From the IMG/VR virus record IMGVR_UViG_3300025132_000021, positions 1-64,000 of that record: 64,000 nucleotides of DNA; one strand, given 5' to 3'. Below the pieces are notes generated by a model that saw only the letters and a list, made by a program, of their open reading frames with translations, was not told the DNA's origin and did not search any database. The number at the start of each line of letters is the position of its first letter. Position 1 is the first letter of the stretch. The translations under genes were made by a program, and so were the position numbers. Shown here piece after piece: positions 5,770-42,203 of this stretch. This stretch comes from a virus.

Positions 5770-5780
5770 TTTAAGTATCA
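5770..5780 (+). promoter_or_regulatory. TTTAAGTATCA promoter box
   Basis: 30 nt before ATG 5800. Confidence 0.8.
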
Positions 5781-5799
5781 AAGACTACCTAATACCCTT

Positions 5800-8514
5800 A
5801 TGGTTAGACGCTATGAGGTTTCAGACCTTGATGTTGAAGACATCATAGTATTTGCCCCTAATGCTCATTTGGATTTAGGTTATACACCTTATCCATCGCT
5901 TTTTGAATTAGAGCAAGAAATCTTAGCAGGCGTTCACACTAATTCATCTGGAGAAATTGGTTGCCCTGCTTGCGGTTGTATTGATTTATTCTTGAAAGAA
6001 AGAACTGCGAAAGGAGTTCGTTATCGTTGTATGTCTTGTATGTATGCTACTGAATCGGAGTTTGAATCTGTTAAATCTCGCAAAGACATAACTTTAGCAC
6101 AATTTGGTTTAGGCTTTGAGTGTGCAATATGCGGTGAGGACATAGATTCTTATAATCACGATACAGTTATGCGTCATGTGCGTAAATGTCGTCAAAAAGA
6201 AAATGAAAACTTTTCTGCGGAAAACATGATGTTAGAATTAGGACAGCAAGACCCAGACGACCCAAACAGAATGTGGGGTCCAGACATTATCAGCCCGATA
6301 TTTCCCTTCAAAGGTTATGAAAGACCCACGGAAGAAGTAAGAGCAGATTTACAAAAACATTTGGTTGGACTGGAAATCAGAATGTATGGTCCTCAAAACG
6401 AATCCGAGGCATTAGGCATTAGACAACCGATGGATTGGTGGAAAGATATTGGTTTCAGTGAGTTTCAACCAGCAGGAACTATGGGAAGAGTCACAGGAGT
6501 TTCCATGTCTAACCCAAACCGACCAAAAATCATTGGAGTATGGGTAACTATCATCAGTGGAGGCACGGCCAAACACCCTGTTGGTTCAAGAGTATGGTTT
6601 CATGTTAAAGATTCCTATTTTCCTGATTCTATGAGGCTTGGTTGGACACACGGAGATTATGTCGGCAATCCCAAGAGAGAAGAATACCTAAGAGGCAAAG
6701 GAATTACTAAAGGTTATGAAGCAGAAGATAAACCAGTAGTCCCTCGTTATGTTTATCATGCCACTCCTCAAGCATATTGGGAACAAATTAAGGAACAAGG
6801 TGGCATGACACCACAAATTGGCTACATGACATATCGGGCATTTTTACCCAGATACAAAAAAGCCCACATTGGTCAAGACATTTCTCCTGAACACTATAAA
6901 CAATGGTTGGTTAAGGAACTTGGAGGTCTGAAAATCTGGGTTACTGGACCAAGCAAGGTATCGGTGTATGCCAGTATGATTGAACCCATGAGTTTCTTAC
7001 GAGACAATGTAGTTTTGAAAATTGATACAGAAGGTTTAGACTTTGAATACTATAATTACGATGAGTTTTTTACGCAAAAACCAATCCCCTTGTCTGCGAT
7101 TGAATTAGAGTGGTTGATGGACGGTGAGCGAAGTGATGAAGAATACCCTGATTATTTGTTGCCTACTCTTGACCCTTCATTAGAATCCCTGTTAGAAGAC
7201 GAACCTGAATTGTTGGAAACTCACCCAGAGTTGTTCCGAGATGAACTTTATGAAAGATTTGTGGCGGCGGCTGAAGATAACCAAAGTGATGATTTAATCT
7301 GGGACGAAGAAGCAGGTTTGTTTTACGATTATGTAGAAGTGCCACAACCCGATGGTGAACTCATTGTGGTTTATTGGATTCTCAACGAAGAATTAGACCA
7401 AGTAGGAAAAGCACAAATAAGCCTATTCAACGATAATTTGGAAATTGACAGTATTTTCATTGAACCTTACTATCAACGCCGAGGAATCGCCACTTCATTT
7501 GTTAATCATGTAGTCAATTATTGGGACAGCGAACTTTTAAGATTTTCTGATGCTGTATCTGATGAGGGCGCAGCATTCATTGATTCATTCGCTGCTGAAG
7601 ATAGTTTAGACTATATGAACTATCTCAATGATTTACGAACTTATCCTGAACTACGAAACTTTACTGATGAGCAACTGCTGGCTATGGGTATTGATTGTTT
7701 AGCATTACAAACTGCCAACCGAGAAAAGTTTGATGCTGAAGATAACTACGATTCTACTTATGGAGTCAAGCAAGCCAAAATCCGCAGACGACTCAAAAAG
7801 AAAATCAAGAAGCAGGCAATTATGGGAACAAAGGCGGGTCAATGGTCGGCTCGTAAATCACAAGAACTTAAGCGACAATATGAGGCAGCGTGTCAGCGAG
7901 CAGGTCTAAAACCATACAAGGGTCAGAAAACCAAAAAGCAACAAGACCTTACGGATTGGTCAGACCAACGCTGGCGCACAGCATCAGGTAAAAAATCATC
8001 TACCACAGGCGAGCCATATTTCCCTGCTAAAGCAGTGGCCGCCCTCAAACAAAAAGGACTTTATTCAAAGGCCAAAAAACAGAAACAAGCCGCCACTAAA
8101 GCAGGCAAACAAAATGCCCGCTATTCCGATGACATTAGAAAAGTTGTTAAACAATATCGTAGTGAAAATATGCTTAATCTAAGCATAAATCCATTTGAAG
8201 ATGTAAAATGGGAAGATGATGAAAGTTTAACAGATAGATTAAGGAGAGAAAATGATTCATGGAGAGAAGATATTCAGTGGAAGGCTTGGGAGTCAAAACC
8301 AAGTAAGTTATCAAAAACTTTTATCTTTGAAGAAGAAGAACCATGGATAGAACTTTGGAATCTGGTGTTCTTTTCTGATGCTTTGGCTGAAGCCTCTGGA
8401 GTAGATATTGAATCAGTTGTCAAACAAAATAAAGTTATCATAACTATTGATAAGACAACCACACCACTTGACTTTGTATTATTAGAATACATCAATGAAT
8501 ATATGAGGTTATAA
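5800..8514 (+). CDS. 904-aa multi-module polyprotein-like protein: Zn fingers, ADP-ribosyltransferase-like, GNAT and DUF5872-like basic modules
   Basis: CPAC/CMSC/CAIC..H..C; YVYHATP..IWVT..VVLKID; IDSIFIEPYYQRRGIAT; GTKAGQWSARKSQELKRQYE; modules separated by FSAE/YEAE/AAAE/FAAE/FDAE/YRSE. Confidence 0.75.
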   Translation: MVRRYEVSDLDVEDIIVFAPNAHLDLGYTPYPSLFELEQEILAGVHTNSSGEIGCPACGCIDLFLKERTAKGVRYRCMSCMYATESEFESVKSRKDITLAQFGLGFECAICGEDIDSYNHDTVMRHVRKCRQKENENFSAENMMLELGQQDPDDPNRMWGPDIISPIFPFKGYERPTEEVRADLQKHLVGLEIRMYGPQNESEALGIRQPMDWWKDIGFSEFQPAGTMGRVTGVSMSNPNRPKIIGVWVTIISGGTAKHPVGSRVWFHVKDSYFPDSMRLGWTHGDYVGNPKREEYLRGKGITKGYEAEDKPVVPRYVYHATPQAYWEQIKEQGGMTPQIGYMTYRAFLPRYKKAHIGQDISPEHYKQWLVKELGGLKIWVTGPSKVSVYASMIEPMSFLRDNVVLKIDTEGLDFEYYNYDEFFTQKPIPLSAIELEWLMDGERSDEEYPDYLLPTLDPSLESLLEDEPELLETHPELFRDELYERFVAAAEDNQSDDLIWDEEAGLFYDYVEVPQPDGELIVVYWILNEELDQVGKAQISLFNDNLEIDSIFIEPYYQRRGIATSFVNHVVNYWDSELLRFSDAVSDEGAAFIDSFAAEDSLDYMNYLNDLRTYPELRNFTDEQLLAMGIDCLALQTANREKFDAEDNYDSTYGVKQAKIRRRLKKKIKKQAIMGTKAGQWSARKSQELKRQYEAACQRAGLKPYKGQKTKKQQDLTDWSDQRWRTASGKKSSTTGEPYFPAKAVAALKQKGLYSKAKKQKQAATKAGKQNARYSDDIRKVVKQYRSENMLNLSINPFEDVKWEDDESLTDRLRRENDSWREDIQWKAWESKPSKLSKTFIFEEEEPWIELWNLVFFSDALAEASGVDIESVVKQNKVIITIDKTTTPLDFVLLEYINEYMRL

Positions 8515-8516
8515 GC

Positions 8517-9308
8517 ATGAAATCTGCTTCAGTTGTTTTCGTTACCGCCGATAATCTGATAGGTTTAGGACTTCGTGGAAGTGGTTTAGAATCTCCTTTG
8601 ACATGGGCTGCCATAGGAGGACATCAAGATGATTATGAAACATTACATCAAACAGCCCATCGTGAAGTTTGGGAAGAATTAGGAATTAGAGTTCCCAATC
8701 GTTTAGAATACTTAGGTCATGTTGGAGAAAATTATGTTTTTGTTTGTCGTGTTCCAGATACATTTTCGGTGCGTTTGAATTGGGAGAATCTTGACTTTCA
8801 ATGGAAAACTTTATCAGAGTGGCAAAACCATAAACTACACCCAGAACTGCGTCAAGTGATTCATTCACGCACATTCTTGGCAGAACAGGAGTTTGAAGCC
8901 ATGCCTGAAGAAACAGAAGGTTATTATGGATTTCCTAATGAAAAAGGTGAGTTTGCAGACACAGAAAAGTGGCTCAAAGAGAATTACTTTCCCAAAGACC
9001 CAGACAGTTATTACGATTACGAACCCAAGACTCGTGAAGTAGAACTCCCAAGAGGAGGGACTAAAAACTTTCCTATTAACTGGTGGTTCATCTCGCAAAA
9101 CCTTGAGTTCTGGGAGACCATTCTTGGAATCCCATTCACAGGTAAAATCCCCAAAGTTAAGCAAAAGAAGAGAGTCCGTGGTCCGCACGAGTCTTTCAAT
9201 CCATTTGCACCACAAGCAAAAAAGCAACGAACATCAGATTATTTAGATGAAATTATGAGGCAAAGGCAACAACGACTTTATGATGATTTGAGAGAGTGGG
9301 AAAAGTGA
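8517..9308 (+). CDS. NUDIX hydrolase fused to an unknown C-terminal module
   Basis: Nudix box GGHQDDYETLHQTAHREVWEELGI; junction FLAEQEFEA. Confidence 0.85.
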   Translation: MKSASVVFVTADNLIGLGLRGSGLESPLTWAAIGGHQDDYETLHQTAHREVWEELGIRVPNRLEYLGHVGENYVFVCRVPDTFSVRLNWENLDFQWKTLSEWQNHKLHPELRQVIHSRTFLAEQEFEAMPEETEGYYGFPNEKGEFADTEKWLKENYFPKDPDSYYDYEPKTREVELPRGGTKNFPINWWFISQNLEFWETILGIPFTGKIPKVKQKKRVRGPHESFNPFAPQAKKQRTSDYLDEIMRQRQQRLYDDLREWEK

Positions 9309-9907
9309 GTTCGGGACGCTTTATTAACAGTTGGATAACCAGCGCAGAAGTCCCAGACGCTCAAGCAAAGTTTTTTCATGCAGCCTTGAAAAACATACCT
9401 CTGGACATATTGCTCTCAATGTCTAATACAGAAATAGAAACATCTTTGGCTCGCAAATATGCTAATTTTGACCCAGATGAAGATGTCGGTTTTGCAGGAT
9501 TAGGCTCATTGTTTGGCGACCCCAAGCCCCCACCCACCGCAGAATCAGAATATGGAGATTATTCTTATTCAATCCCTTGGATTGATAGTTTGATGGAAAC
9601 ATTTTCTTCTATTCAGCCGTTTTCTAAAGTCCGTCCACTTAATTTTAATGAATATCAAATGCTTCAGATAATAACAGGAACAGATACTCCAGAGATACAG
9701 AAAAAGGTATTCTCTTATTATTGCCCAAAATGTAGAGCCGAGAAAAAAATTAAATACTCAATGGGAACTCGTTATGATGAAGATGCTGAAGAATACCTTA
9801 AACCATTATTCAATACAGGCAAAGGTGTGAATACTGCCTATTACTTTTGTGATACTTGTTATGAGAATGCTGACGGTTTTGCAGGTTTAGGTTCATTATT
9901 TGGTTAA
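9305..9907 (+). CDS. Protein with two ribosomal stalk (aP1/aP0) C-terminal-like peptides and a Zn ribbon
   Basis: GFAGLGSLFG twice, one at the extreme C terminus; CPKC...CDTC; GTG overlaps upstream TGA. Confidence 0.7.
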   Translation: MSSGRFINSWITSAEVPDAQAKFFHAALKNIPLDILLSMSNTEIETSLARKYANFDPDEDVGFAGLGSLFGDPKPPPTAESEYGDYSYSIPWIDSLMETFSSIQPFSKVRPLNFNEYQMLQIITGTDTPEIQKKVFSYYCPKCRAEKKIKYSMGTRYDEDAEEYLKPLFNTGKGVNTAYYFCDTCYENADGFAGLGSLFG

Positions 9908-10036
9908 ATCCCAGAAAAACGGGACACTGCGAGCCTGTTTCTGGAAATCTTCTGGAATCTGGAAAATCACAAAAGGGTCTTGAAGCCCAGTAATTTTAGA
10001 AAATCATTTTTTTCTATTATTTAGTAGGCATTTCAC

Positions 10037-10555
10037 TTAGACCAAAACATCAGAGAAAAGTTTTTCAATATCAAACATAGCCTCATCATTGAAAGTCCAA
10101 TCTGTCCTTGGACCATTACCAAAGTTTCTAATAACTTTTACGCAACCATCAGCAGAGCCATCAGAGGCTTCTGCTTTGTCCATAAGTTCTTGGATTCTTT
10201 CTTTAGTGAGCCAACCACGCAATTCCAGATATTCTTTGTTTTCAGGCAGATGCCCCATAACATAAATATCCCATTTAGGCTTTTGACCCCACATACGAGT
10301 ATCAAAAGTTGTTTTCATATCAATAGTTAGTTCATCAAACTTGAAATCAGGGTATCTCCAACCCTGTTTGTTAAACACAATCCATTCATAGTCCAATCCT
10401 AAAGATTTCAAATGTTGGTCTAAAGCCATTTCTCCGAGAAGTCCAATGTAGTTATTGGGTGAGGGAAACTTATTCCAAGTTTTTTGAGCATCAAACTTTG
10501 CTTGTTCTCTTTTGGCTTCTGCAACCATTTCGGGAGTAAGTGGAATCCTTATCAT
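10037..10555 (-). CDS. PD-(D/E)xK nuclease-like protein
   Basis: GLLGE...YPDF...IDMKT. Confidence 0.65.
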   Translation of the reverse strand: MIRIPLTPEMVAEAKREQAKFDAQKTWNKFPSPNNYIGLLGEMALDQHLKSLGLDYEWIVFNKQGWRYPDFKFDELTIDMKTTFDTRMWGQKPKWDIYVMGHLPENKEYLELRGWLTKERIQELMDKAEASDGSADGCVKVIRNFGNGPRTDWTFNDEAMFDIEKLFSDVLV

Positions 10556-10606
10556 ACCTTAACATAACAGAGGTAGTATATCATACTTCGGGTCTTGAAG
10601 TCAAGA

Positions 10607-11107
10607 TTAGAAGAGAGGAGAACAGCCGTTCTCATACCATAGTGGTGATTCTTCTTTCCACCGAGGGCCACTTCCACGATTCATATATCCTTTGCCCAGA
10701 TTGTAATAGTTTCGGTAAGACATTACTGGGTCATCTTTGACCTTAAACTTGTCTGGCATACACACTACAAAAGGTTGTAGTTTGCCCGCAGGTATGTATT
10801 TAGCCTTGCTAATACAATGCTCAATTACGGCTTGGCACTTGTGTTCTCGGCCATAGCGACGAGTGTATTCTCGGCACAATTCCATGCCGTGTTTGCCCAG
10901 CCAAAGGAAGTTTTCACGAGTTGCTGAAGCCCATTTAGTGCATGGGTGCGATACATGAGTTGGACCATATTTGGTGCTACGGTATTTGTGGTTTTGTAAA
11001 GCCGTGCATAACATTTGGGCTGTTTCAATTGGCATCTTAACGGTATGCCGATTGCAGAGTTGTCGGGCAGCAGCACGAGGGTCGGAATCTACGATAAAGA
11101 TATTCAT
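10607..11107 (-). CDS. Pyrimidine-dimer DNA glycosylase (T4 endonuclease V-like family)
   Basis: MNIF...HTVKMPIETAQMLCTA...HPCTKWA...EYTRRYG...SYRNYY. Confidence 0.8.
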   Translation of the reverse strand: MNIFIVDSDPRAAARQLCNRHTVKMPIETAQMLCTALQNHKYRSTKYGPTHVSHPCTKWASATRENFLWLGKHGMELCREYTRRYGREHKCQAVIEHCISKAKYIPAGKLQPFVVCMPDKFKVKDDPVMSYRNYYNLGKGYMNRGSGPRWKEESPLWYENGCSPLF

Positions 11108-11115
11108 TCAATCAC

Positions 11116-11340
11116 CTACTGTGGGTTATCTACTAACCACTGTATAAAACTTAATACCTCATTTACCATGTTATCATCTAACTGTTTGACCTCACCGAAG
11201 CGATTACGCAAACAAACCCAGATATGGGCGTAGCCATTACGACCATTCGGGTGTCTGGGTGAGAATGGTAGAGTTTTTGTTAAAATATCCCCTGCTACCC
11301 CTACTGTTTGGGTGATTCTTTGCCAATTTTGTTCATTCAT
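11116..11340 (-). CDS. Small conserved hypothetical protein
   Basis: HPNGRNGYAHIW motif; within minus-strand operon. Confidence 0.65.
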   Translation of the reverse strand: MNEQNWQRITQTVGVAGDILTKTLPFSPRHPNGRNGYAHIWVCLRNRFGEVKQLDDNMVNEVLSFIQWLVDNPQ

Positions 11341-11346
11341 TGTGCA

Positions 11347-12174
11347 TCAACTCTGATAATCAGGACACCACCAAGTCCTACGGCGGTCTGGAGTTTCCTC
11401 TTGAACAACTTTATGTCCATGTTTAGAAACTCTTTTGGAATAGCATTCAAACTCAAAACGGTAATCACCAGTGCTACCATCAGGCAACACATAATCACGA
11501 ATAGTAGCCCCACGACAGTCATAAGAGGCATTGATTACAAAAAGAGTCTGGTCATAAATGGCTCGTAAATTATCGTCCGTGAGTTCTTCTACACTATGCC
11601 ATGGACTAACCTTAGCACGATAGAGAACTTCTGCTTTGATATAGTTTCCGATGCCTGAAACCACCTTTTGGTCCATTAGTGCTTTGGTGATATTCCAATG
11701 GTTTTTCTTTCGTAGACGCATCACGAACTCATCAAAACTCGGAGGGTCATTAAGCATATCAGGACCAAGCGTAGCCAGTTTCTTATCCAGCGTAGAATTA
11801 TCCTTGTGGAAAATCTTGAAAGTTCCAAACCGTCGTGTATCACGATAGTAAGTCAATTTACCATCTAAGGTTTCTAACTTGAGCATCACATGATTCTTTG
11901 GGTTGTAAGTTCTCCAAGTCCCACTCATACCTAATGTATGCCAAATCTCCCATTCACCACCATTTAGTGTGAACCAGATAAACTTTCCTTTACAGTTGAT
12001 ACCATCAATCTTTAATGGTTTATCATCTAATACTGCCCTCAAATCGTGGATTTGGTCTCGCACCTGTTTAGAGCAATAACTCTCATTCTCAAAATGAATT
12101 GCACGCAATTCTTCCCCCGCCAACCGCTTATTCAAACGCTCAACAATACGCTTTACTTCAGGACCTTCAGGCAT
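11347..12174 (-). CDS. mutM: Fpg/Nei DNA glycosylase/AP lyase (zinc-less finger type)
   Basis: N-terminal MPEGPEV, KGKF, HTLGMSG, DTRRFG, LGPD, LMDQKVVSGIGN; start 12174 is 31 nt after TTAATAAG. Confidence 0.93.
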   Translation of the reverse strand: MPEGPEVKRIVERLNKRLAGEELRAIHFENESYCSKQVRDQIHDLRAVLDDKPLKIDGINCKGKFIWFTLNGGEWEIWHTLGMSGTWRTYNPKNHVMLKLETLDGKLTYYRDTRRFGTFKIFHKDNSTLDKKLATLGPDMLNDPPSFDEFVMRLRKKNHWNITKALMDQKVVSGIGNYIKAEVLYRAKVSPWHSVEELTDDNLRAIYDQTLFVINASYDCRGATIRDYVLPDGSTGDYRFEFECYSKRVSKHGHKVVQEETPDRRRTWWCPDYQS

Positions 12175-12200
12175 ACATAAAGTATGTAATATCACTCTTA

Positions 12201-15584: not shown

Positions 15585-15588
15585 ACGA

Positions 15589-15771
15589 ATGAAGAATCAA
15601 CAACCGTCTAAACGCAACAAAGCGTGGCGTGAGCATCGTCAGCCAAAGCATGAAGAAACCGACATTGATGAACTCAATTTAGAAATCCTTGGGCTTTGGA
15701 GATGTCCCGATTGTGAACTCATGCAACCATTAGCCCATTATGAATGTCAAAAGTGCGGTTTTGTGCGTTAG
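15589..15771 (+). CDS. Small RanBP2-like zinc ribbon protein
   Basis: WRCPDC...CQKCGFVR; GGGTGA SD. Confidence 0.65.
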   Translation: MKNQQPSKRNKAWREHRQPKHEETDIDELNLEILGLWRCPDCELMQPLAHYECQKCGFVR

Positions 15772-15802
15772 TTTATATGGGTCATCGGACTTATGTTTAA
15801 GT

Positions 15803-16381
15803 ATGAGCCGTAAAATTGTGAACATGGTAGCCAGCACCAGACTAACCGACACCATTGATTTGTATGATGTCGCAAACACCCTTGACCTTGATTTTGAGGC
15901 CGAACAATTCCCGGGCATGGTCTATCGTGTCGGAGAAGATACTCACGGAGAAGGCGCACCTAAAGTTTGTTTGCTACTCTTTGGTTCTGGTCGTGTAGTT
16001 GCCACAGGAGCCAAGTCTTATGATGATGTAGTTATCGCTATGAATCACATTGTTGATGACCTCAAGAACCATGAGTTTGAACTCTGGGATTTTGATGAGG
16101 ACGACATTCAAGTGCAAAACATTGTTATGACTTATGATTACGGACACACACTTCACCTGCACAATCTTGTGCTGGCACTTCCGTTTGAGCGAAGCGAATA
16201 CGAACCAGAGCAATTCCCCGGATTGATTTTCCGCCTTGAGGAAACTTCAGGAGTCTGTCTGATTTTCTCATCAGGCAAGTGTGTTATCACAGGAACTAAC
16301 TCTCCTGACGAAGCAGAAGAAGCCATTGAGGAACTCAAGATGGAACTTGACGCTGTGCGTAGTGTTTCTTCTATTGTTTGA
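15803..16381 (+). CDS. tbp: TATA-box binding protein
   Basis: Two TBP repeats: NMVAS..EQFPGMVYR..LFGSGRVVATGAK and NIVMT..YEPEQFPGLIFR..IFSSGKCVITG; TTTATATG box 31 nt upstream. Confidence 0.97.
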   Translation: MSRKIVNMVASTRLTDTIDLYDVANTLDLDFEAEQFPGMVYRVGEDTHGEGAPKVCLLLFGSGRVVATGAKSYDDVVIAMNHIVDDLKNHEFELWDFDEDDIQVQNIVMTYDYGHTLHLHNLVLALPFERSEYEPEQFPGLIFRLEETSGVCLIFSSGKCVITGTNSPDEAEEAIEELKMELDAVRSVSSIV

Positions 16382-18761: not shown

Positions 18762-18769
18762 TTTATATG
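18762..18769 (+). promoter_or_regulatory. TATA box for ncRNA
   Basis: TTTATATG 30 nt before 5' hairpin at 18792. Confidence 0.6.
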
Positions 18770-18791: not shown

Positions 18792-18997
18792 GTTGGCGGG
18801 GATACCTGCCAATGGAGATGGCTGAATGTCCCTTCGTGGGGGATAAGGCACTGCTCTCGTAGGAACACGATTCCTGCCGTGGACGGCCAAGTGGCATAGA
18901 AGCGAGCCTGTAAATGGGCGGTTAGTAGGTTGGAGTCGTGAACGCAACGGAAACTGCGACGGCTGCATGGAGGTATGTCCAAGTCCTCCTCTCACCC
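18792..18997 (+). ncRNA. tRNA-like structured RNA of about 205 nt with expanded arms
   Basis: GC-rich island; GAGA-TGGCTGA..TAAGGCA D-arm-like, CTGCT/AGTAG stem, GGAGG/CCTCC T-stem followed by TCTCACC; then a T-rich tract. Confidence 0.65.
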
Positions 18998-19032
18998 TTT
19001 ACTTCATATAGGTGCTACTCTTTAGTAGTAGT

Positions 19033-19248
19033 ATGGACTCATTTTGGATAGCACAAATGCAACAGTATGCCAGTAGATATGCACAATTCGTAGAAATCTT
19101 AACTACTAAGGTTCACATGACTACTGAAGATATTTTACCACTTTGGCTTCATCTTAATGAACTTGTTTGTGATTGCGAAGGATGTCGTGAAGAAACAGAT
19201 TGCATAATTCATATTGATTTTGATTTTGATGATGAAGACGAGGATTGA
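19033..19248 (+). CDS. Small acidic Cys-containing protein
   Basis: CDCEGC..C..H; upstream of DP1. Confidence 0.5.
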   Translation: MDSFWIAQMQQYASRYAQFVEILTTKVHMTTEDILPLWLHLNELVCDCEGCREETDCIIHIDFDFDDEDED

Positions 19249-19253
19249 TTACT

Positions 19254-20588
19254 ATGCGAGAAATTAGAGGTTGGAATCCCACCCGCATTCACGAGGAACT
19301 CAAATTAGAGCCTCGTCAAATTGCTGATGCGTGGTCTGCCAAAGCCTCGGATTATGCTTATGAACTTTCCACAGGTGTTTCCGTTGGTGAAACCGACCAA
19401 ACAGGAAAGATGGAAGATATTATCAATTTATTTCAGAATCGTTTAGAGGTTATTGAAAAGATTCTCAAGAATGAACATGGATTTCATAAGTTTGGAGACA
19501 TTCGTGAAGTAGACCGCAACCGAAGAAAGTTTATTCGCCATCAAGTAGCCGTAATTGGTATTGTAACTGATATTAGGCGAAGCCGAAGCGGAGGTCGTAT
19601 CGTAGAATTAGAAGACCGCACAGGCACAATGACAATTTTTATTCGCAAAGATGACCCCGCAGCAGGCACATTAGTTAATGATGATGTTATCGGAGTAGTT
19701 GGTAATTTTGCAGACAAAGGAGATATGTTCTTTGCTAATCGGGTTCAATATCCCGAAGTATTGCCCACACATCAAAATCGTGGAGGTTTAGATTTTGACC
19801 CAGTATCAGTGGCTTTTGCTTCCGACATCCACATGGGTTCTAAAAAGTTTCTGGAAAAAGATTGGGACAAGATGATGAAATGGATGAACTCAACTGATGA
19901 AACAGCCCAGAATATCAAATACTTTGTTTTATCAGGAGATGTAGTAGATGGAGTAGGCGTTTATCCCGGACACGATAGAAACTTGTCTATGAATGATGTT
20001 TATGACCAATACGAGTATTGCGCTCGCAAATTAGATGAATTGCCAGACCACATCACACCAGTAATCCTTCCGGGAAATCACGATGCTGTCCGACCTGCTG
20101 AACCCCAACCTATGCTTGAACCACTAATTCAACAAAGGTTTAATTCCACAGTTCACACAGGCAATCCTGCTCGCATCTATCTAAATCATGGTCAAGAATC
20201 AGACCCATTTGAAATACTAAGTTATCACGGCAAAGGCATTGACGACATGGTTCCAAGAATGGCTCATGTGACTTATGAAGCCCCAGCCGAAGCCATGAAA
20301 GAAATGATGAAGAAACGACATTTGGCTCCAATGTGGGGTGAACGCAACGCTCTAAGTCCCGAAGTAGAAGACCAAATGATTATTCGTGATGCACCAGATT
20401 TATTCGTTACAGGTCATACCCATGCTCATCAAGTTGAGTGGTATCGTGGCACACCCTTAGTAGTATCATCTACTTTCCAAGGCGAAACAGATTTCATGCA
20501 AATGCTGGGTTATCAGCCCAAGAAATCTTTGCTTTCAGTGTATAATTTACAGTCCCGAAGTAGCCGAGTTATCTCTTTTGAGTCCTAA
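19254..20588 (+). CDS. polD1: DNA polymerase D small subunit DP1 (OB fold plus calcineurin-like 3'-5' exonuclease)
   Basis: SDIHMGSKKF, GDVVDGVGVYPG, PGNHDAVRPAEPQP, YHGKGIDD, RHLAP.WG, TGHTH, TFQGETDF. Confidence 0.95.
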   Translation: MREIRGWNPTRIHEELKLEPRQIADAWSAKASDYAYELSTGVSVGETDQTGKMEDIINLFQNRLEVIEKILKNEHGFHKFGDIREVDRNRRKFIRHQVAVIGIVTDIRRSRSGGRIVELEDRTGTMTIFIRKDDPAAGTLVNDDVIGVVGNFADKGDMFFANRVQYPEVLPTHQNRGGLDFDPVSVAFASDIHMGSKKFLEKDWDKMMKWMNSTDETAQNIKYFVLSGDVVDGVGVYPGHDRNLSMNDVYDQYEYCARKLDELPDHITPVILPGNHDAVRPAEPQPMLEPLIQQRFNSTVHTGNPARIYLNHGQESDPFEILSYHGKGIDDMVPRMAHVTYEAPAEAMKEMMKKRHLAPMWGERNALSPEVEDQMIIRDAPDLFVTGHTHAHQVEWYRGTPLVVSSTFQGETDFMQMLGYQPKKSLLSVYNLQSRSSRVISFES

Positions 20589-32122: not shown

Positions 32123-34153
32123 ATGACAAATACAAACACAGATACAAATAGATTTACACTTTCAGATAATTTCGTAACTAAATACAAGAGGAAAAAAGCA
32201 CCTTTTGGATTCAACGGATTAGGAGAGTTAGTTTATCATAGAACCTATTCTCGTATGAAGCCAGATGGTAAAAACGAACAATGGTGGGAAACAGTTCAAC
32301 GAGTTGTAGAAGGCACATTCAATATGCAAAAGCGACACATTGATGCACATGGTTTGGGTTGGAATGCTTGGAAAGCCCAACACTCGGCACAACAAATGTA
32401 TGACCGTATCTTTAACATGAAGTTCCTTCCACCGGGTCGTGGACTATGGGCTATGGGAACACCAATCACTGAAGAAAAGAAACTTTTCGCAGCCCTGAAC
32501 AACTGTGCTTTCGTATCTACTGAAAACTTCAAAGGTGAGTTCTCCTCGCCTTTTTGTTTCTTGATGGATGCTTCTATGCTGGGTGTTGGAGTAGGTTTTG
32601 ATACCAAAGGTGCTGGCACTTTAATTCTCAAAGGTCCAAACGAACAACGCCGTAGTGAACTATATGAAATCCCTGACACTCGTGAAGGCTGGGTAGAGTC
32701 CCTCCGACTATTGTTAGATTCCTATGCTCAAGGCACAGGAGAAATTGAGTTTGACTATTCAGCAATCCGTCCAATGGGAGTTCCTATTCGTGGATTCGGT
32801 GGTGAATCATCAGGACCAGAACCCTTGATTGAACTGCACCAAACAGTTCGTTCTATTCTTCTTCACGAAATTGGCAAACCAATTTCACTCACTGCTATTG
32901 TAGACATTATGAATCTAATTGGCAAGTGCGTAGTTGCTGGAAATGTGCGACGCACAGCAGAAATTGTCTTTGGAGAGCCAGATTCAGAAGAATACCTTGA
33001 CCTTAAGAATTATGAGGTCAATCCCCACCGAGCCGAATATGGTTGGACTTCTAACAACTCTATTTTCGCAGAGGTTGGAATGAATTATGAACCTGCTGCC
33101 GAGCGTGTTCGCTACAATGGTGAACCCGGTTTTGCATGGCTTCACAATATGAAAGCCTATGGCCGAATGGCAGATGCCCCAAATTGGAAAGACCGCCGAG
33201 CCACAGGTGGTAATCCTTGTTTGGAACAAACTTTAGAATCCTATGAACTTTGTTGTTTGGTAGAAACTTTCCCTAACAACCACGATTCAGTAGAAGATTA
33301 TTTGGAAACTTTGAAATATGCTTATCTTTATGCTAAGACCGTAACTTTGGGGCAAACCCATTGGCCTGAAACCAACCGAGTTATGCTTAGAAATCGTAGA
33401 ATTGGTTGTTCCATGTCAGGTATTGCCCAATTTGTTGCTAACAAAGGATTAGGAGAACTACAAGCATGGATGGATAAAGGCTATGCCCACATTCAAAAAC
33501 TTGATGAAAACTATTCTGATTGGATGGCTATTCCTCGTTCTATCAAAACTACTTCTATCAAACCATCAGGAACAGTTTCTCTTTTGGCAGGTGCTACACC
33601 GGGTATTCACTTCCCCGAATCCAGATACTACATTCGTCGTATGAGATTGGGCGTAGGTTCAAATCTCGTTCCAGCCCTTGAGAAAGCAGGATACAAACTT
33701 GAACCTGCTTTTGGTTCAGAAGAAACTACTTTGGTAGTTGAAATCCCTGTTGATGTAGGAGAAGGTGTTAAAACTCTTGATAATGTTTCTATGTGGGAAC
33801 AACTTGGTATGGCATCTTTGGCACAACGCTATTGGGCAGATAATCAAGTATCTTGCACCGTAACTTTTGACCCAGAATCAGAAGGCTCTCAAATTGCGGC
33901 GGCTCTTGACCAATTCCAATATCAACTCAAAGGTATTTCTTTCTTGCCCCGATTAGACTTGGGTGCATATCCACAAATGCCTTATGAATCTATTGATGAA
34001 TCTACTTACCATGAAATGAAAGCACAACTTGGAAAACTTTCTTTTGGTCGTATCAAGGGTGAAGAAATCGTCGTAGAGCGTTTCTGCGATAATGATGTTT
34101 GCGAAATTGATTTTAACCCCGTAGATAATGAAGAAGTTAATGCTCAACTATAA
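32123..34153 (+). CDS. nrdJ: Class II (B12-dependent) monomeric ribonucleoside-triphosphate reductase
   Basis: FLPPGRGLW, LNNCAF, GNVRRTA, NPCLEQ, TSIKPSGTVS, C-terminal FCDNDVC. Confidence 0.96.
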   Translation: MTNTNTDTNRFTLSDNFVTKYKRKKAPFGFNGLGELVYHRTYSRMKPDGKNEQWWETVQRVVEGTFNMQKRHIDAHGLGWNAWKAQHSAQQMYDRIFNMKFLPPGRGLWAMGTPITEEKKLFAALNNCAFVSTENFKGEFSSPFCFLMDASMLGVGVGFDTKGAGTLILKGPNEQRRSELYEIPDTREGWVESLRLLLDSYAQGTGEIEFDYSAIRPMGVPIRGFGGESSGPEPLIELHQTVRSILLHEIGKPISLTAIVDIMNLIGKCVVAGNVRRTAEIVFGEPDSEEYLDLKNYEVNPHRAEYGWTSNNSIFAEVGMNYEPAAERVRYNGEPGFAWLHNMKAYGRMADAPNWKDRRATGGNPCLEQTLESYELCCLVETFPNNHDSVEDYLETLKYAYLYAKTVTLGQTHWPETNRVMLRNRRIGCSMSGIAQFVANKGLGELQAWMDKGYAHIQKLDENYSDWMAIPRSIKTTSIKPSGTVSLLAGATPGIHFPESRYYIRRMRLGVGSNLVPALEKAGYKLEPAFGSEETTLVVEIPVDVGEGVKTLDNVSMWEQLGMASLAQRYWADNQVSCTVTFDPESEGSQIAAALDQFQYQLKGISFLPRLDLGAYPQMPYESIDESTYHEMKAQLGKLSFGRIKGEEIVVERFCDNDVCEIDFNPVDNEEVNAQL

Positions 34154-34157
34154 GTAG
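34149..34157 (+). promoter_or_regulatory. TATAAGTAG box overlapping the nrdJ stop codon
   Basis: Exactly 30 nt before first base of the sRNA stem. Confidence 0.65.
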
Positions 34158-34178: not shown

Positions 34179-34258
34179 TGGAGCCAACATCAAACACTAA
34201 CCGTTCTCGCCTTCCTCACCAACGGTTCTTCCCTCACCTCTCTTGGTGTCTGGCTCCA
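34179..34258 (+). ncRNA. 80-nt small RNA with pyrimidine-rich anti-SD-like loops
   Basis: 15-bp terminal stem 34179-34193/34243-34258 (bulged C, one G-U); inner stem AACCGTT/AACGGTT; loops CTCGCCTTCCTCACC and CTTCCCTCACCTCTC. Confidence 0.7.
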
Positions 34259-34292
34259 CCATCTATTCCAATAAGCCTAAGCCTTGCCAATC

Positions 34293-35155: not shown

Positions 35156-35174
35156 ATAGTGTTTATGTTATTAC

Positions 35175-35486: not shown

Positions 35487-35487
35487 T

Positions 35488-35682: not shown

Positions 35683-35690
35683 AGACAAGT

Positions 35691-35701
35691 TTTAAGTATC
35701 A
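35691..35701 (+). promoter_or_regulatory. TTTAAGTATCA promoter box
   Basis: 30 nt before ATG 35721. Confidence 0.8.
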
Positions 35702-35720
35702 GAACAGTCAAGGATAGTAT

Positions 35721-36170: not shown

Positions 36171-36176
36171 GTATCA
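36166..36176 (+). promoter_or_regulatory. TTTAAGTATCA promoter box
   Basis: 31 nt before ATG 36197. Confidence 0.8.
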
Positions 36177-36196
36177 GAGCAAACTAAGTGATAATA

Positions 36197-37912
36197 ATGC
36201 CTGTCTTTTTGATTACTGGATATGATGGCGAGGATGCCATCTTTTACAGAGAAACTCCTCACCATAATGGAGTTGGGCCGTTGTTAAATCAAGCAATTCG
36301 TGAACTATCTCAACTCCCTAATTCAATGATTATTATTGAAAGTTTGCATGAAGATTCACCCGAAACTCAAATGGAAAAGCATATTCCTTTTGCAGATTAT
36401 GAAGAGTTTTATGTAGATGAGTGGGACGCAGAATCTACTAAAAAGTCAGGTAAAGTAATTACCATGTCTGGCAAACCACACAAACCTCGTAAGTTGAAGC
36501 AAGACCAAGGCATTAGCCCAGAAGAAGCAATTCAAAGAATAGCATTTCGTAGTGAAACAAGTGATTGGGTAATTGAAGAAGTTAGTATTTATGATTCTAC
36601 TTATGGCAGTAAGGCTGATGGTTCACTTTACAATCCAGATTCTAATGAACGCATAGAGTTTGAAGAAGCAGATGTTCGCATGGATTATTACATCCCACCA
36701 ATGGAAAACATTTATGTAGATTATGACGAAGACGAGGACGAAGACGAAGATGTTGAGGCGGTTGTAGAAGAATCCATGATGGAAGCCGAAGGATTCTATG
36801 ACGAGGATGGCATAGGTCCTAAGTTTATGGCGGAAGGAAAAAAGAACTGTGGCTGTGGTCAAGACCCATGTAAGACTTACGGTGCAGAAACTTTTGAAGC
36901 ACCCAAAACCATGACCAAAACTCAAGCCAAGAAGAAGTTTATTGCTTTGGCTCAACCCTACTGGATAAAAGCACTAACTAAATTGAAGGAAGGCTATATC
37001 CAAGAGAAAAAGGATGACGACAAACGGAGAGGCGGTGAATCTGAATACTTTGAACAGTATGATTATGATATTGAAGACACAAACACCTATCTCAAGATTG
37101 CTAAATCTCAATCCAAGATTATGAACATCATTGGTTGTGATGATGGAGATACAGTCCTTAGAGAAATGATTCCTGACGGATTTTACCACCTTATCAACTA
37201 TCCACGAGAAGATTATGATACTTGGGAAACCACAATGGCTTATTTTGAAGGACCCAAAACAATTAAAAAACAATTGAAAGCCTTGTTGCCTTTTATTGAG
37301 GGCAAAGTTACGGTCAAGCCAAAGTCAAAGGCTAAGAAACCTAAATACTATCTTCATTTTGGTGAGGGTTTTACTGCTGATAAATGTGTTTATACTGGTA
37401 AAAAGTATGCTATGAACACAATTCGTTCCGCCAAAGCATTAGCAAATCAGATGTGGAATCTCGGACCTATGCCCGGTATGAATCGTGGATATGCAGATTT
37501 TACCATCAACGGTGAACATTATGGCAATATAGTAACATGGGAAACAGAAATTATAGATGCCGACACGGGAGAAGTGGTGGATTATTGGACACCATCAAAA
37601 GAACAAAAAGCCGCATATAAAAAGAAGGCTAATGCTATCAAAAAGGCTGCTAAACCTGCGGCAAAGAAACCCAAGCCCAAGCCACGGGCAAAAGCCTCTG
37701 CTAAGAAATCTAAGGCTAAGGCTAAAGCCAAGACTGGCCGCAAAGCACCTACAATTTCAGCCACCAAGCGAAAGATTGGAACTCGGATGCGAGGCAACGA
37801 TGGTAAAATGTGGGAAGTCAAGAAATCTGGAAAATCACAACGATGGATGGCTGGTGCAGAAACTCAAGAGTTTCGTTCACCATTAGATGACTCTTTTGAT
37901 GAAATACTATGA
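36197..37912 (+). CDS. Polyprotein-like modular protein with acidic modules and Lys/Ala-rich (H1-like) C-terminal region
   Basis: WDAE, FRSE, MEAE, FMAE, YGAE, AGAE junctions; KKAAKPAAKKPKPK; RKAPTISAT..GTRMRGNDGKMW..QRW. Confidence 0.75.
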   Translation: MPVFLITGYDGEDAIFYRETPHHNGVGPLLNQAIRELSQLPNSMIIIESLHEDSPETQMEKHIPFADYEEFYVDEWDAESTKKSGKVITMSGKPHKPRKLKQDQGISPEEAIQRIAFRSETSDWVIEEVSIYDSTYGSKADGSLYNPDSNERIEFEEADVRMDYYIPPMENIYVDYDEDEDEDEDVEAVVEESMMEAEGFYDEDGIGPKFMAEGKKNCGCGQDPCKTYGAETFEAPKTMTKTQAKKKFIALAQPYWIKALTKLKEGYIQEKKDDDKRRGGESEYFEQYDYDIEDTNTYLKIAKSQSKIMNIIGCDDGDTVLREMIPDGFYHLINYPREDYDTWETTMAYFEGPKTIKKQLKALLPFIEGKVTVKPKSKAKKPKYYLHFGEGFTADKCVYTGKKYAMNTIRSAKALANQMWNLGPMPGMNRGYADFTINGEHYGNIVTWETEIIDADTGEVVDYWTPSKEQKAAYKKKANAIKKAAKPAAKKPKPKPRAKASAKKSKAKAKAKTGRKAPTISATKRKIGTRMRGNDGKMWEVKKSGKSQRWMAGAETQEFRSPLDDSFDEIL

Positions 37913-38176
37913 GGAATTATTATGCACCCAAATACAATAGAAGCAGTTCGCAAATACCTACGAAACAAAGCATTAGATGAAACATATTCTTATTTCGGAG
38001 TAGATTAACTATGATTTATCATTGTTTGCATTGTAATCAACCTATAATGCCCGGAGAATCCTCCATTAGATTACATGGTTCATCACCAGTTCACTTGACT
38101 TGTCAAAACAATAATACCTTTACTGCACCATGGGAACATAGATAAGTTTATATTGGTCATTACATATAGTATTACT

Positions 38177-38557
38177 ATGACTAATTTTTGGGAAGACTTT
38201 TTCCGAGACATGATGAACAATTCTACGAATCCATATTCAGGATATAATACCAGCCATTATAGTAATCATTATATTCCTCGTAATCAAAAGCAAGGTGGAA
38301 TTGGCCGTTTGGCAAAAACACTTAAAGAAATCAAAGAACTGGTTGAAGCCCTTTTGAACAATCAATTAGAAACCAGCCACATTGTAGAAGAAAAGTTAGC
38401 AATTGATGATAACAAGTTTGAACTTAATTTAGTTGTAGAGAAGGAGATTGCAGGCGAAACCCGCCGATTCAACATCAATGTAGAAGAAGTTTTTGTGGAA
38501 GAGTCAGACGATGAAGAAGAGTCTGATGAAGATACCACCAATTATTTTACTGAATGA
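38177..38557 (+). CDS. Hypothetical protein
   Basis: TTTATATT box 30 nt upstream; acidic tail. Confidence 0.6.
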   Translation: MTNFWEDFFRDMMNNSTNPYSGYNTSHYSNHYIPRNQKQGGIGRLAKTLKEIKELVEALLNNQLETSHIVEEKLAIDDNKFELNLVVEKEIAGETRRFNINVEEVFVEESDDEEESDEDTTNYFTE

Positions 38558-38652
38558 GCATCACGCCCCAAACTTTAAGTAGTTGATAAGACCTATTGTT
38601 TAGTAGAGGAAACAGTGGGTTTCCTATGAACGACAAATAAAAGGTAATTTTA

Positions 38653-40365
38653 ATGAACAAAGAAAATAAACTAAAGAAGACATTTTTAACGATTTTAACA
38701 GCAATTATGCTTGCTATGAGTGCAGGTGTAGTTACTGGTGAAGGTTCCGACCCTCTTGACCCATCAGACGGTGGCGCAGATTGGGATGGCGACGGTTTGA
38801 CTAACAAAGAAGAACAAGACGCTGGAACTAATATGAACAACCCAGATTCAGACGGTGATGGACTCCCAGATGGTTGGGAAGTTGCTAACGGCCTAAATCC
38901 AACTAACGGTGGCGATGCTAACGGCGACCCAGATGGAGATGGTCTAACCAACTCTCAAGAATATGCACAGGGAACTAACCCAAACAATGCCGATACTGAC
39001 GGCGATGGCAAACCTGATAACACAGATGCCTTCCCTAACGACCCTAACGATGGAGAATACTCCGACTCCGATGGAGATGGAATCCCAGACGCATACGACC
39101 CAGATTATCAAGAGTCCCAAGCGGGTTCTGGTAATGGAGGCACAGAAGGCGGTGGCGAGTCTGAAGACAATGGACAAGGCGAAGGCCAAGGTCAGGGTCA
39201 AGGACAGGGACAAGGACAAGGACAGGGGCAAGGCCAAGGCCAAGGTCAGGGTCAAGGTCAGGGTCAGGGTCAAGGACAGGGCCAAGGTCAAGGACAAGGA
39301 CAAGGGCAGGGCCAAGGACAAGGGCAAGGCCAAGGTCAAGGTCAAGGACAGGGACAGGGCCAAGGCCAAGGTCAGGGTCAAGGACAAGGCCAACAACAAG
39401 GTCAAGGTCAAAGTCAAGGACAAGGACAACAAGGACAACAAGGCCAGCAAGGAAACCAAGGACAACAAGGACAGGCTGGACAACAAGGCCAACAATCTGG
39501 ACAACAAGGTAACCAAGGTCAGCAAGGCCAACAAGGGCAACAAGGTCAGCAACAAGATAACGGGCAAGGCCAGCAACAACAAGGAGGTCAGCAAGGCGGT
39601 CAGCAATCTGAACAACAAGCAGAAGAACAGAACGGCCAAAACCAAAATGGTGCTAACCAACAACAGCAAGGTCAAACCCAGAATGGTCAGCAAGGCCAGC
39701 AAGGTCAGCAAAATGACCAGCAACAAGGCCAACAGTTGGATAATCAAGACCAAAATGGAGATAACGACAATGATGGCGACGGTATTCCTGATGACTTAGA
39801 CAATGATGATGATAACGATGGAATCCCAGATACTATGGATGATTCACCTCAAGACCATGATAACGACGGCATTGATGATGCTGAAGATAATGATGATGAC
39901 GGAGATGGAATCAACGATAATGAAGAAGTCAATGATGGCAACGACAACACAGATATTTATGACCACGACAATGACGGTATAGAAGACCGTTTTGACTTTG
40001 ACATTGATAATGACGGAATTGACAACTGGAATGACCTGTATGAAAACGGGTCAGATGCCAGCCGAGACCACGACAATGATGGTATGGACGATGGTGTAGA
40101 CACAGACGACGATAACGACAACATTCTTGATGTTGATGAAATCGGCGGTGCTTGGTCTTCCTATCGCTACGACCATGATAACGACAACATTTGGGATGCA
40201 ACAGACCTTGATGATGATAACGATGGTCTATCAGACTGGTTTGAGAACAATGATGGCAACGATATGACAGGTCAATTTGACCATGACAACGATGGCGTTA
40301 GTGATTACTTAGACCTTGACGATGATGGCGACGGTATTCTGGACGAGTTTGAAAACGGCGTTTGA
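38653..40365 (+). CDS. Secreted protein with TSP3-like Ca-binding DxDxDG repeats flanking a Gly-Gln low-complexity domain
   Basis: Signal peptide; DSDGDG/DHDNDG/DDDNDG repeats; (GQ)35 then Q/G/N-rich. Confidence 0.85.
   Translation: MNKENKLKKTFLTILTAIMLAMSAGVVTGEGSDPLDPSDGGADWDGDGLTNKEEQDAGTNMNNPDSDGDGLPDGWEVANGLNPTNGGDANGDPDGDGLTNSQEYAQGTNPNNADTDGDGKPDNTDAFPNDPNDGEYSDSDGDGIPDAYDPDYQESQAGSGNGGTEGGGESEDNGQGEGQGQGQGQGQGQGQGQGQGQGQGQGQGQGQGQGQGQGQGQGQGQGQGQGQGQGQGQGQGQGQGQGQGQGQQQGQGQSQGQGQQGQQGQQGNQGQQGQAGQQGQQSGQQGNQGQQGQQGQQGQQQDNGQGQQQQGGQQGGQQSEQQAEEQNGQNQNGANQQQQGQTQNGQQGQQGQQNDQQQGQQLDNQDQNGDNDNDGDGIPDDLDNDDDNDGIPDTMDDSPQDHDNDGIDDAEDNDDDGDGINDNEEVNDGNDNTDIYDHDNDGIEDRFDFDIDNDGIDNWNDLYENGSDASRDHDNDGMDDGVDTDDDNDNILDVDEIGGAWSSYRYDHDNDNIWDATDLDDDNDGLSDWFENNDGNDMTGQFDHDNDGVSDYLDLDDDGDGILDEFENGV
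39184..39393 (+). repeat. (GGN CAR)x35 coding repeat (Gly-Gln)
   Basis: 210 nt with synonymous codons mixed. Confidence 0.9.
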
Positions 40366-40469
40366 AGTCTATAATTTAACTTGTTATGACGGACGAGATT
40401 TCATTACGAAATCTTCTCTTGAACTCGTTAAAGAGTAGTGTTAAATAGGTGAAACCACCTACACTAATT

Positions 40470-40703
40470 ATGAACCCCGCCAAACTTACACCCGTTCAAA
40501 TGCGTGTCCTTTGTAGCCGAAATGAGTTAGAAACATTTGTCAAGCGTAGACTTTCTACCTTAAACAAAAGAAGTGCTGATTCATGGAATAAGCGAAACCA
40601 AAAAGTTCAGCGTTCAGAAGTTAATTTTTCTAATATCAATAAAGAAACATTGGTGTTCATGGCTTCGGCTTTGAGCAAGTGTGAGCGTAAAGACAATCTT
40701 TAA
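40470..40703 (+). CDS. Small basic protein
   Basis: TTAAATAG box 29 nt upstream of ATG 40470. Confidence 0.55.
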   Translation: MNPAKLTPVQMRVLCSRNELETFVKRRLSTLNKRSADSWNKRNQKVQRSEVNFSNINKETLVFMASALSKCERKDNL

Positions 40704-40709
40704 GTATCA
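40699..40709 (+). promoter_or_regulatory. TTTAAGTATCA promoter box
   Basis: 30 nt before ATG 40729. Confidence 0.8.
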
Positions 40710-40728
40710 AAGAATACCATTAAACTTC

Positions 40729-40935
40729 ATGCGTAGTCGTGAAGATGTCTATGGAATGCTTAGAGAAGCAGTAGATTTGCAGGAAACATGGCGTTATGCC
40801 TATGACCAAGCCAAAGCGCAAGGCAACAAGGAACAAATGAGGATTTGTGTTCGCAATCATAAAGCATTAGAAGGAGTTATCAAAACCCTTCGGTGGACAC
40901 TTGAATATGCAGGTATTAGTAGTCCCTTAATGTAA
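40729..40935 (+). CDS. Small helical protein, paralogue A
   Basis: RNHKALEGVIKTLRWTL. Confidence 0.75.
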   Translation: MRSREDVYGMLREAVDLQETWRYAYDQAKAQGNKEQMRICVRNHKALEGVIKTLRWTLEYAGISSPLM

Positions 40936-40975
40936 ATCTTTATTAAGGTGCTTCAACAAACGAGGGTTGAAAACT

Positions 40976-41227
40976 ATGGCTGAAATGAGCGACCATCAAG
41001 ATACGAACCATTTTACTTATGACCGTAATTGGGACGAAATTGAAAATATGTTAGATGCTGCCGAGCGCATGATGAACAAATGGGTTAATCGTTTTTACGA
41101 GGCTCAAGTCAAAGGCGACCGTAGAACTATGAAAGATTGCGCTCGTAATAAAAAAGCCTTAGAAGGTGTTATCAAAACACTCCGATGGACATTGGGCGAT
41201 AAGAACATAGAACATCCATTAAATTAA
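40976..41227 (+). CDS. Small helical protein, paralogue B
   Basis: RNKKALEGVIKTLRWTLGD. Confidence 0.75.
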   Translation: MAEMSDHQDTNHFTYDRNWDEIENMLDAAERMMNKWVNRFYEAQVKGDRRTMKDCARNKKALEGVIKTLRWTLGDKNIEHPLN

Positions 41228-41239
41228 ACTTAGCAAATC

Positions 41240-41250
41240 TTTAAGTATCA
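41240..41250 (+). promoter_or_regulatory. TTTAAGTATCA promoter box
   Basis: 31 nt before ATG 41271. Confidence 0.8.
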
Positions 41251-41270
41251 GAACCGCCAAAGTCCTTATC

Positions 41271-42203
41271 ATGGACGCAAGAACAATCGCAGGCGCAGGA
41301 CTACTCATTGGTGGTGGTCTTGTCGGCTACAAGGCTATGAAAGATTTGGCAGGACTTGGTTGCTATGGACCAGCCGCTTACCTAACACTCGGACTCACTG
41401 GAATTGGCGCAGGATTATTCCTGTTTGGCAAACTACGAACAGACGCAGTTAAGCAAAGAGTTGCTGATGTAAAAGAAGAAGTTTCCGCAGTAATGAACTC
41501 TGAATACTACCCTTGGCTACCTGAAGGTATGGATGCTGGCGATGTAGTAGTTCCTAACTCCTATGGAGACACTTCCTCTGCTGCTGGTATGCCTGATGGC
41601 TCTGGTCGTGGAGTTCCACAATGGTATGGAAGCGCAGAAGGCCGAAAATACGGCAAGCGTGACCGATACACAGACCGTTGGGGCAACGCTCGCTACTTTA
41701 CTCGTCGCAAGGACGGTTCAATCGTAACTTCAGTCAATATCGCTGGAAAGCGTGGTGCTGTTGCTAACGACCGCCGACAAGGTGCTAAGACTTACAAGCC
41801 TTCTGGCTACCGTCAGATGGGTGATGCAAAGCCAGTCGGACAACTTGAGAGAGCCATGAAGAATATGTTCGGTGCAGATACCGAAGCAGGACTTCCAGTT
41901 ATCCCAGATTCCTACGGAACAAACTCTGCTCTGGATTCAGGACAAGGAGTTCCAGTTTGGTATGGTTCCGCAGAATCCAAGTATGGCAAACGCCAACGCT
42001 TTGACCATATCAAAGGCAACAGCCGATATGTCGCTCGTGATACTAAGGGAAGATTTATCTCCAATGTATCAGTAGCAGGTAAGCGAGGTTCAATCGCACA
42101 GGACAAGCGTAAGATGGCAAAGTCCTACAAGCCTGCTGGCTACCGCCAGATGGGTGATGGAAAGCGTGTTCCACAATCGGCTCGTGCTTCCAAGAATGTG
42201 TGA
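41271..42203 (+). CDS. Membrane-anchored precursor with duplicated spacer plus basic module
   Basis: Two N-terminal TMs; two copies of P.SYG..SG.GVP.WYGSAE followed by KYGKR..AGKRG..YKP.GYRQMGD. Confidence 0.8.
   Translation: MDARTIAGAGLLIGGGLVGYKAMKDLAGLGCYGPAAYLTLGLTGIGAGLFLFGKLRTDAVKQRVADVKEEVSAVMNSEYYPWLPEGMDAGDVVVPNSYGDTSSAAGMPDGSGRGVPQWYGSAEGRKYGKRDRYTDRWGNARYFTRRKDGSIVTSVNIAGKRGAVANDRRQGAKTYKPSGYRQMGDAKPVGQLERAMKNMFGADTEAGLPVIPDSYGTNSALDSGQGVPVWYGSAESKYGKRQRFDHIKGNSRYVARDTKGRFISNVSVAGKRGSIAQDKRKMAKSYKPAGYRQMGDGKRVPQSARASKNV

Follow-up and report, generated by a model that had tools for sequence, protein, structure and literature searches.

Grafted ribosomal stalk tails and a covarying hairpin RNA in a leaderless-promoter virus of probable Poseidoniales hosts

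Two elements encoded by the virus that we call G000 appear to be aimed at host translation: copies of the tip of the archaeal ribosomal stalk protein aP1, carried by proteins unrelated to it, and a small hairpin RNA (sRNA) with a loop predicted to pair with Shine-Dalgarno (SD) sequences. The DNA analysed, referred to as the window, comprises the first 64,000 bases (1-64000) of a linear virus record of 160,342 bp, and the span is the part between positions 5770 and 41271, on which a preliminary description rested. That description combined the two elements with leaderless promoters and a tRNA-shaped RNA into one integrated takeover. Each of the four features proves to be real, and most readings of the single components stand. 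We find this four-part system to be unsupported, because the parts do not co-occur in relatives, the host also shows a leaderless signature and the virus keeps SD-led genes. Our preferred reading, to which we give a probability of roughly 0.55, is that leaderless transcription of the ordinary archaeal kind, driven by a viral variant of the TATA box, is accompanied by two separate translation modulators and by a separate manA-like RNA. The two translation-targeting mimics, the stalk-tip copies and the SD-pairing RNA, are credible and apparently undescribed, and the findings of lasting value are the convergent grafts of the aP1 tail and a new family of covarying hairpin RNAs. To our knowledge, the seizure of host translation by archaeal viruses is barely known.

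The tails are found in an operon at the start of the span, which is made up as follows.

5770-5777, + strand: TTTAAGTA box, a TATA box of the virus type in front of the operon for polyprotein, NUDIX and stalk-tail protein; ATG at +30
5800-8514, + strand: multi-module protein of 904 amino acids (aa), with weak GNAT and DUF5872 matches; leaderless by spacing
8517-9308, + strand: NUDIX hydrolase, a downstream cistron with a weak SD
9305-9907, + strand: 200-aa carrier with two aP1-type tails; its start overlaps the NUDIX stop and its body has no known fold
9488-9517, + strand: internal aP1-type tail, GFAGLGSLFG
9875-9904, + strand: C-terminal aP1-type tail, GFAGLGSLFG, 9/10 identical to Poseidoniales aP1

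As the preliminary description had it, a stalk-tail protein does lie behind the 5770 box: the carrier is the third open reading frame (ORF), with an intragenic TTAAATA at 9750 as the sole box in between, and its two host-type GFAGLGSLFG copies use different codons. The C-terminus of host aP1 reads GFEGLGSLFG, or has Asp in place of Glu, and the exact host form ends five homologues of the carrier. The GL-SLF core of both tails is kept in 11 homologues, with overall identity as low as 36%, and synteny of the operon extends to relatives. Relatives include G005 (166 kb, bounded by inverted terminal repeats (ITRs); 148 of 217 ORFs in common) and G002 (150 kb; 105 ORFs in common), among others that are in part incomplete records. 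G005 has no counterpart of the carrier; there the same tail is found on two adjacent, unrelated proteins, at the end of one (139 aa) and inside the other (141 aa or more), and it is kept across the G005 clade. A 462-aa protein (L357:2302-3690), from an IMG/VR contig without the capsid-like gene pair described below, ends in the exact Poseidoniales aP1 tail and adjoins a primase-like gene. The tail is present on several unrelated bodies and is therefore a repeatedly used graft, which is strong evidence of selection; judged from sequence, the host aP1 C-terminal peptide is grafted onto unrelated small viral proteins. Ten residues of the host stalk tip, copied onto at least four unrelated viral proteins, offer a cheap and testable example of viruses convergently mimicking the site at which the ribosome binds its factors. 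The module that follows FEAP (G000 86792-88690; L063-L067) was considered as a fifth tail and not counted, being tail-like in some relatives and degenerate in G000.

The tail also points to the host. A DNA pattern for the tail and its stop codon, scanned over GTDB, gave at least 80 matches; among the 80 listed, nearly all are Poseidoniales-type metagenome-assembled genomes, and those that were translated are aP1 or aP0 C-termini. Because of these matches, and given the marine sources, we suggest that the host of G000 is most probably Poseidoniales (Marine Group II). Through this match a host can be assigned to an abundant family of viruses that encode PolD, TBP and TFB, a family of which we found no description in the searchable literature. 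The described Poseidoniales viruses, the magroviruses (PMC11706807), have the same probable host order; unlike them, G000 is a 160-kb ITR genome with PolD, TBP, TFB and twin capsid-like genes, and that paper contains no mention of PolD, TATA or ribosomal.

In the solved complex of aP1 with aEF1a, the interface is made up of L100, L103, S104, L106, F107 and G108, and the residues of the carrier tail correspond to those that dock (PMC4267659). The carrier has the C-terminal factor-binding motif of an aP1/aP0 stalk protein, and the viral tails equal Poseidoniales aP1 at 9-10 of 10 residues; by analogy with the solved structure, they should bind stalk-dependent GTPases. Unlike archaeal aP1 and aP0, the viral carriers have a short acidic run, internal copies and unrelated bodies. 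Neither the N-terminal dimerisation and anchoring domain of aP1 nor its hinge was found in the carrier; a profile comparison aligned 15 C-terminal columns only and did not support the N-terminal helices of the carrier as an aP1 N-domain, and the body has no Pfam or fold match (weak model, pLDDT 60). We suggest that the tail proteins most likely act as a soluble decoy, which would throttle or capture stalk-dependent GTPases. They may instead be recruiters, delivering translation GTPases to viral mRNA, to membranes or to sites of assembly and so increasing viral translation whatever the mRNA type. Bivalency, with the tails set on a folded, helical domain at the N-terminus, and the several different carrier bodies would suit recruitment, as would phage bL12 domains, which likewise sit in varied larger proteins (PMC6375957); we consider it possible although somewhat unlikely, as the ribosome-anchoring aP1 N-domain is missing and no RNA-binding or membrane domain is recognised in the carrier. 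Phage-encoded bL12 (Mizuno et al. 2019) is similar in that a virus-borne, factor-binding part of the stalk occurs there too, often in unrelated proteins and with patchy presence. The viral tail differs in being an archaeal P-type linear peptide and not a folded bL12 domain, and ribosome incorporation is not evidenced. The tail alone gives no bias towards leaderless mRNA, because elongation factors serve all mRNAs.

The second modulator, the sRNA, is encoded directly behind a ribonucleotide reductase (RNR) gene.

32123-34153, + strand: class II RNR, with box, leader and SD; synteny anchor of the sRNA
34149-34156, + strand: TATAAGTA box of the sRNA; predicted start at +31
34180-34261, + strand: 82-nt hairpin sRNA with a 14-bp terminal stem, C/U-rich loops and a 4-nt 3' tail; founder of the family
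34228-34242, + strand: conserved 3' internal loop, the SD-complementary element

The fold at 34180-34261 is stable (z=-5.3) and presents two C/U loops. Homologues were found in 46 places, all after RNR, and comprise 26 distinct sequences of 50-89 nt; none was found in G002, in the relatives G012 and G003 or in more distant loci. The terminal stem covaries, with double-sided changes in 6 of 10 pairs and 91% of cells paired, versus 32-50% in slid controls, in an alignment that was itself fitted to the model. The smallest member (50 nt, easy to synthesise) keeps just the 14-bp stem and a single 18-nt loop, and for this reason we regard the 3' C/U loop as the core of the sRNA. The conserved structure leaves the C/U motif unpaired, and the tail of host 16S rRNA carries the standard anti-SD. 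When paired with the SD consensus, 11 of 12 loops do better than the mean of their own shuffles (-7 to -15 kcal/mol; the 16S tail gives -16.3), and the SD 8-mer ranks 4th of 168 permutations, a rank reached in 1 of 30 shuffled-loop sets; per-lineage p values range from 0.003 to 0.46, the lineages not being independent. The loop has at least as large an advantage on viral SD regions as on those of the host. The anti-SD loops of the preliminary description are retained as an unpaired C/U loop that is predicted to pair with SD in a covarying family, with a modest advantage over shuffles. From the computed pairing, anti-SD action is most likely the function of the sRNA. The loop would seed on purine-rich ribosome-binding sites and dampen SD-led mRNAs of host and virus alike; leaderless mRNAs would escape, giving a mild, indirect and plausible bias in their favour. 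Should the sRNA act as a general anti-SD, the extent to which archaeal initiation depends on SD pairing could be tested directly.

CyaR, S. aureus RNAIII and the UCCC sRNAs (PMC2837412) also display an unpaired, SD-complementary C/U loop on a hairpin. The viral sRNA differs from them in being virus-encoded, in its archaeal host, in its closed hairpin of 50-89 nt and in having no Rfam match; a conserved, specific orthologous mRNA target was sought and not found, strong-SD genes alone recurring. A different view takes the sRNA for a decoy or sponge of proteins (Y-RNA-like, Sm/Lsm-binding or mimicking an acceptor stem) and puts its match to SD down to pyrimidine richness. Pyrimidines make up 86% of its unpaired bases, GUGAGGGA rather than SD is the best conserved target word, and the terminal stem resembles the acceptor stem of a tRNA-Ala-like gene (G000 80312-80385). 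We hold this view to be possible although somewhat unlikely, since no Ro60, the Y RNA partner, was found in three hosts (incomplete genomes) or two viruses, a CCA end is encoded in 11 of 26 sequences only (post-transcriptional addition is possible), and the order of the loop favours SD over shuffles. A 23S rRNA helix with GUGAGGGAA was rejected as a target: it pairs well with some lineages, but this 9-mer was not found in host 23S, which has only 8-mers, at other places. The tRNA-Ala(UGC)-like gene surfaced only at a lowered ARAGORN threshold, and a tRNA-Pro-like gene lies directly 3' of the sRNA in G005-type viruses (L017 about 6957-7034, - strand); low-threshold ARAGORN also gave noise.

The promoter class bears out the claim that most boxed genes start 29-31 nt after the box. 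An ORF-opening ATG lies at +29 to +31 after 14 of the 17 TTTAAGTA boxes in the span and 22 of the 25 in the window, versus 2.8% of random positions, and genome-wide an ATG at +28 to +31 follows 51 of 64. All 25 copies in the window are on the + strand (3.4 expected). The exceptions in the span are 15796, which overlaps the probable TBP start (itself behind a TTTATAT box), 20612 (leader and SD) and 38574 (conserved leader hairpin). The features concerned are as follows.

15740-16381, + strand: virus-encoded TBP; probable start 15803, behind TTTATATG at 15772
41240-41247, + strand: last TTTAAGTA box of the span; ATG at +31, the G005 orthologue being leadered with ATG at +41

A TATA-like box about 30 nt before ATG marks a leaderless archaeal promoter, and the TTTAAGTA class has this form; TTAAGTA or TTAAATA boxes at leaderless spacing occur in 7 of 7 records examined. 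Because members of the sRNA family begin at +30/31 of the same kind of box, the likely start site is fixed and the leaderless reading is sound. We suggest from the box-to-ATG spacing that viral TTTAAGTA-class genes are likely to be leaderless. In three host genomes, TT(C/G)A(A/T) peaks sharply 29 nt before ATG, and the viral box is a virus-enriched variant of a host TATA pattern, TT-N-A-W-R, about 29-30 nt before ATG. Leaderless initiation is no peculiarity of the virus; the 8-mer itself is virus-specific, with 64 copies in G000 versus 0 in 800 kb of host DNA. The viral TBP has diverged (about 45-60% identity to host TBP repeats), and TBP and TFB of the virus probably read the TTTAAGTA box. 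Transcriptional control is the simpler explanation of the boxes, because the virus has both a diverged TBP and a TFB; reading of the box by these proteins would yield leaderless mRNA, as first cistrons in the host often are. Poseidoniales TATA boxes (host loci L269-L308) are apparently TT(C/G)A(A/T)(A/G), which is unusual for archaea, and an insertion separates the two repeats of host TBP.

SD independence, which the preliminary description gave to most genes of the box class, does not extend to the roughly one-third of viral genes that carry an SD. A rough regular-expression classification of viral ORFs of at least 80 aa gave 64 leaderless, 63 SD-type and 48 with neither, and the SD peak lies 9-13 nt ahead of starts; the virus runs SD-led initiation in parallel with leaderless. 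The mode switches between orthologues: 10 genes that are leaderless in G000 are SD-led in G005, and 5 show the reverse. With its own SD-led and switching genes, and with the host peak at 29 nt, the virus is not set apart from its host by leaderless mRNA, as the integrated system would require. The twin capsid-like genes are leadered in G000, G005 and G002, with a strong SD on the second, with which the sRNA loop is predicted to pair at -12.6 kcal/mol. These 230-aa paralogues (G000 81469-82849; L328) have 1678 homologues with very high conservation, and further paralogue-like matches occur in G012. They are putative capsid proteins of an undescribed family; fold searches with weak models gave no match, and an Atlas search returned a single lead (0.78), to jelly-roll capsids.

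The third RNA-level claim concerned a tRNA-shaped RNA.

18762-18769, + strand: TTTATAT-class box driving the manA-like RNA, not of the TTTAAGTA class
18795-18999, + strand: manA-like structured RNA with tRNA-like D-arm/T-arm order and a 4-5 bp closing stem

The RNA is real and conserved among relatives, with a covarying closing stem and a tRNA-like order of arms, but it is not a tRNA. ARAGORN finds none in 18795-18999, and there is no 7-bp acceptor stem, no 7-nt T-loop (it is enlarged) and no cloverleaf with an anticodon loop. It matches Rfam manA (RF01745) end to end with 40.5 bits (E 5.5e-7), below the gathering cut-off of 55.2, and its homologues are also full-length matches below the cut-off, at 36.1-41.1 bits. 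Like manA (PMC2864571), which occurs in marine cyanophages, it has a marine viral context and a covarying closing stem; it differs in its low score, archaeal virus, own TATA box and central arms. It is absent from the complete, ITR-bounded G005 and from G012, and G002 has a divergent copy. We conclude that this manA-like phage RNA follows a distribution of its own and is not demonstrably tied to translation.

Co-occurrence across related genomes had been proposed as the check on the four-part system, and it fails. On the evidence of few long genomes, box, sRNA, tails and manA-like RNA are all present in G000; of these G005 lacks the manA-like RNA, G002 combines the box with the manA-like RNA alone, and the partial G012 has the box only. 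Boxes occur throughout the family and the sRNA and tails in a single subclade, with the manA-like RNA varying on its own. That all four are present in G000, and tails and manA-like RNA together in close relatives, is what the full system with its tRNA-shaped RNA would require; we think it very improbable, given that G005 lacks the manA-like RNA and G002 has it without sRNA or tails, and that this RNA uses a different promoter class, has neither the 7-bp acceptor stem nor the 7-nt T-loop, and resembles the manA RNAs, which form closed oligomers, or RNA cages, in vitro (bioRxiv 10.64898/2026.07.01.735769).

A narrower reading is a two-part switch of initiation mode in one subclade. Here a broad anti-SD RNA would mask and silence SD-led host and viral mRNAs, repeatedly reinvented tail decoys would withhold recycling and initiation GTPases (ABCE1, aIF5B), and 70S ribosomes would start on leaderless viral mRNA. 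Initiation by 70S ribosomes on leaderless mRNA and the binding of ABCE1 by aP1 are known. The sRNA and tails are found together in G000, G005 and many G005-type loci, aP1 genes are preceded by strong host SDs with which the window sRNA loop pairs over 7 nt, and leaderless starts account for a larger share in the virus (about 37% of ORFs) than in the host (at least about 11%, a narrow-pattern net estimate). We nevertheless judge it unlikely: the second capsid-like gene, with its strong SD, would be hit, G002 is as rich in leaderless genes without sRNA or tails, different viruses use different carriers, and in one lineage with the sRNA the carrier has lost its tail. Our preferred reading is instead that one subclade gained two independent modulators, the tail grafts and the hairpin RNA. 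Of course, some observations weigh against the views taken here. The sRNA and tails fit a linked module, in that G000 and G005 have the two and G002 and the partial G012 have neither, although this is one contrast, confounded by ancestry. The SD advantage of the loop is about 1 kcal/mol on real SD regions, with none in two lineages, and UC(A/G)CCUC is kept in 12 of 26 sRNA sequences only. The long acidic run of aP1 is missing from the viral tails, host TBP may be able to read the viral box, since it conforms to the host pattern, and the capsid identity of the twin genes is a candidate lead only.

The G000 genome is bounded by 99-bp ITRs. Genes for TBP, DP1, PCNA and class II RNR lie in the window, and those for DP2 and TFB outside it.

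19245-20588, + strand: PolD small subunit (DP1-type)

The RNR type varies within the family (L120-L126 versus L039-L093), and G002-type viruses have a different RNR at the same site. The leader hairpin at 38574-38653, before a 570-aa TSP3-repeat gene, is kept with stem changes in G005 and G002 and is a candidate cis-regulatory element. G000 155371-155594 (L030) holds an orphan TTTAAGTA box and a 193-nt RNA; this RNA resembles the sRNA at both its start and its end, with the terminal 6 bp identical, is U/G-rich and then A/G-rich, and is not matched by the sRNA model. An ArsA/Get3-like ATPase (N-terminal motif) is encoded at 46473-47618 of the window, and the genome has many C-terminally anchored proteins. 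A hydrophobic-x-A-E motif recurs between modules of the 5800-8514 protein and in many ORFs genome-wide, and is a possible protease site.

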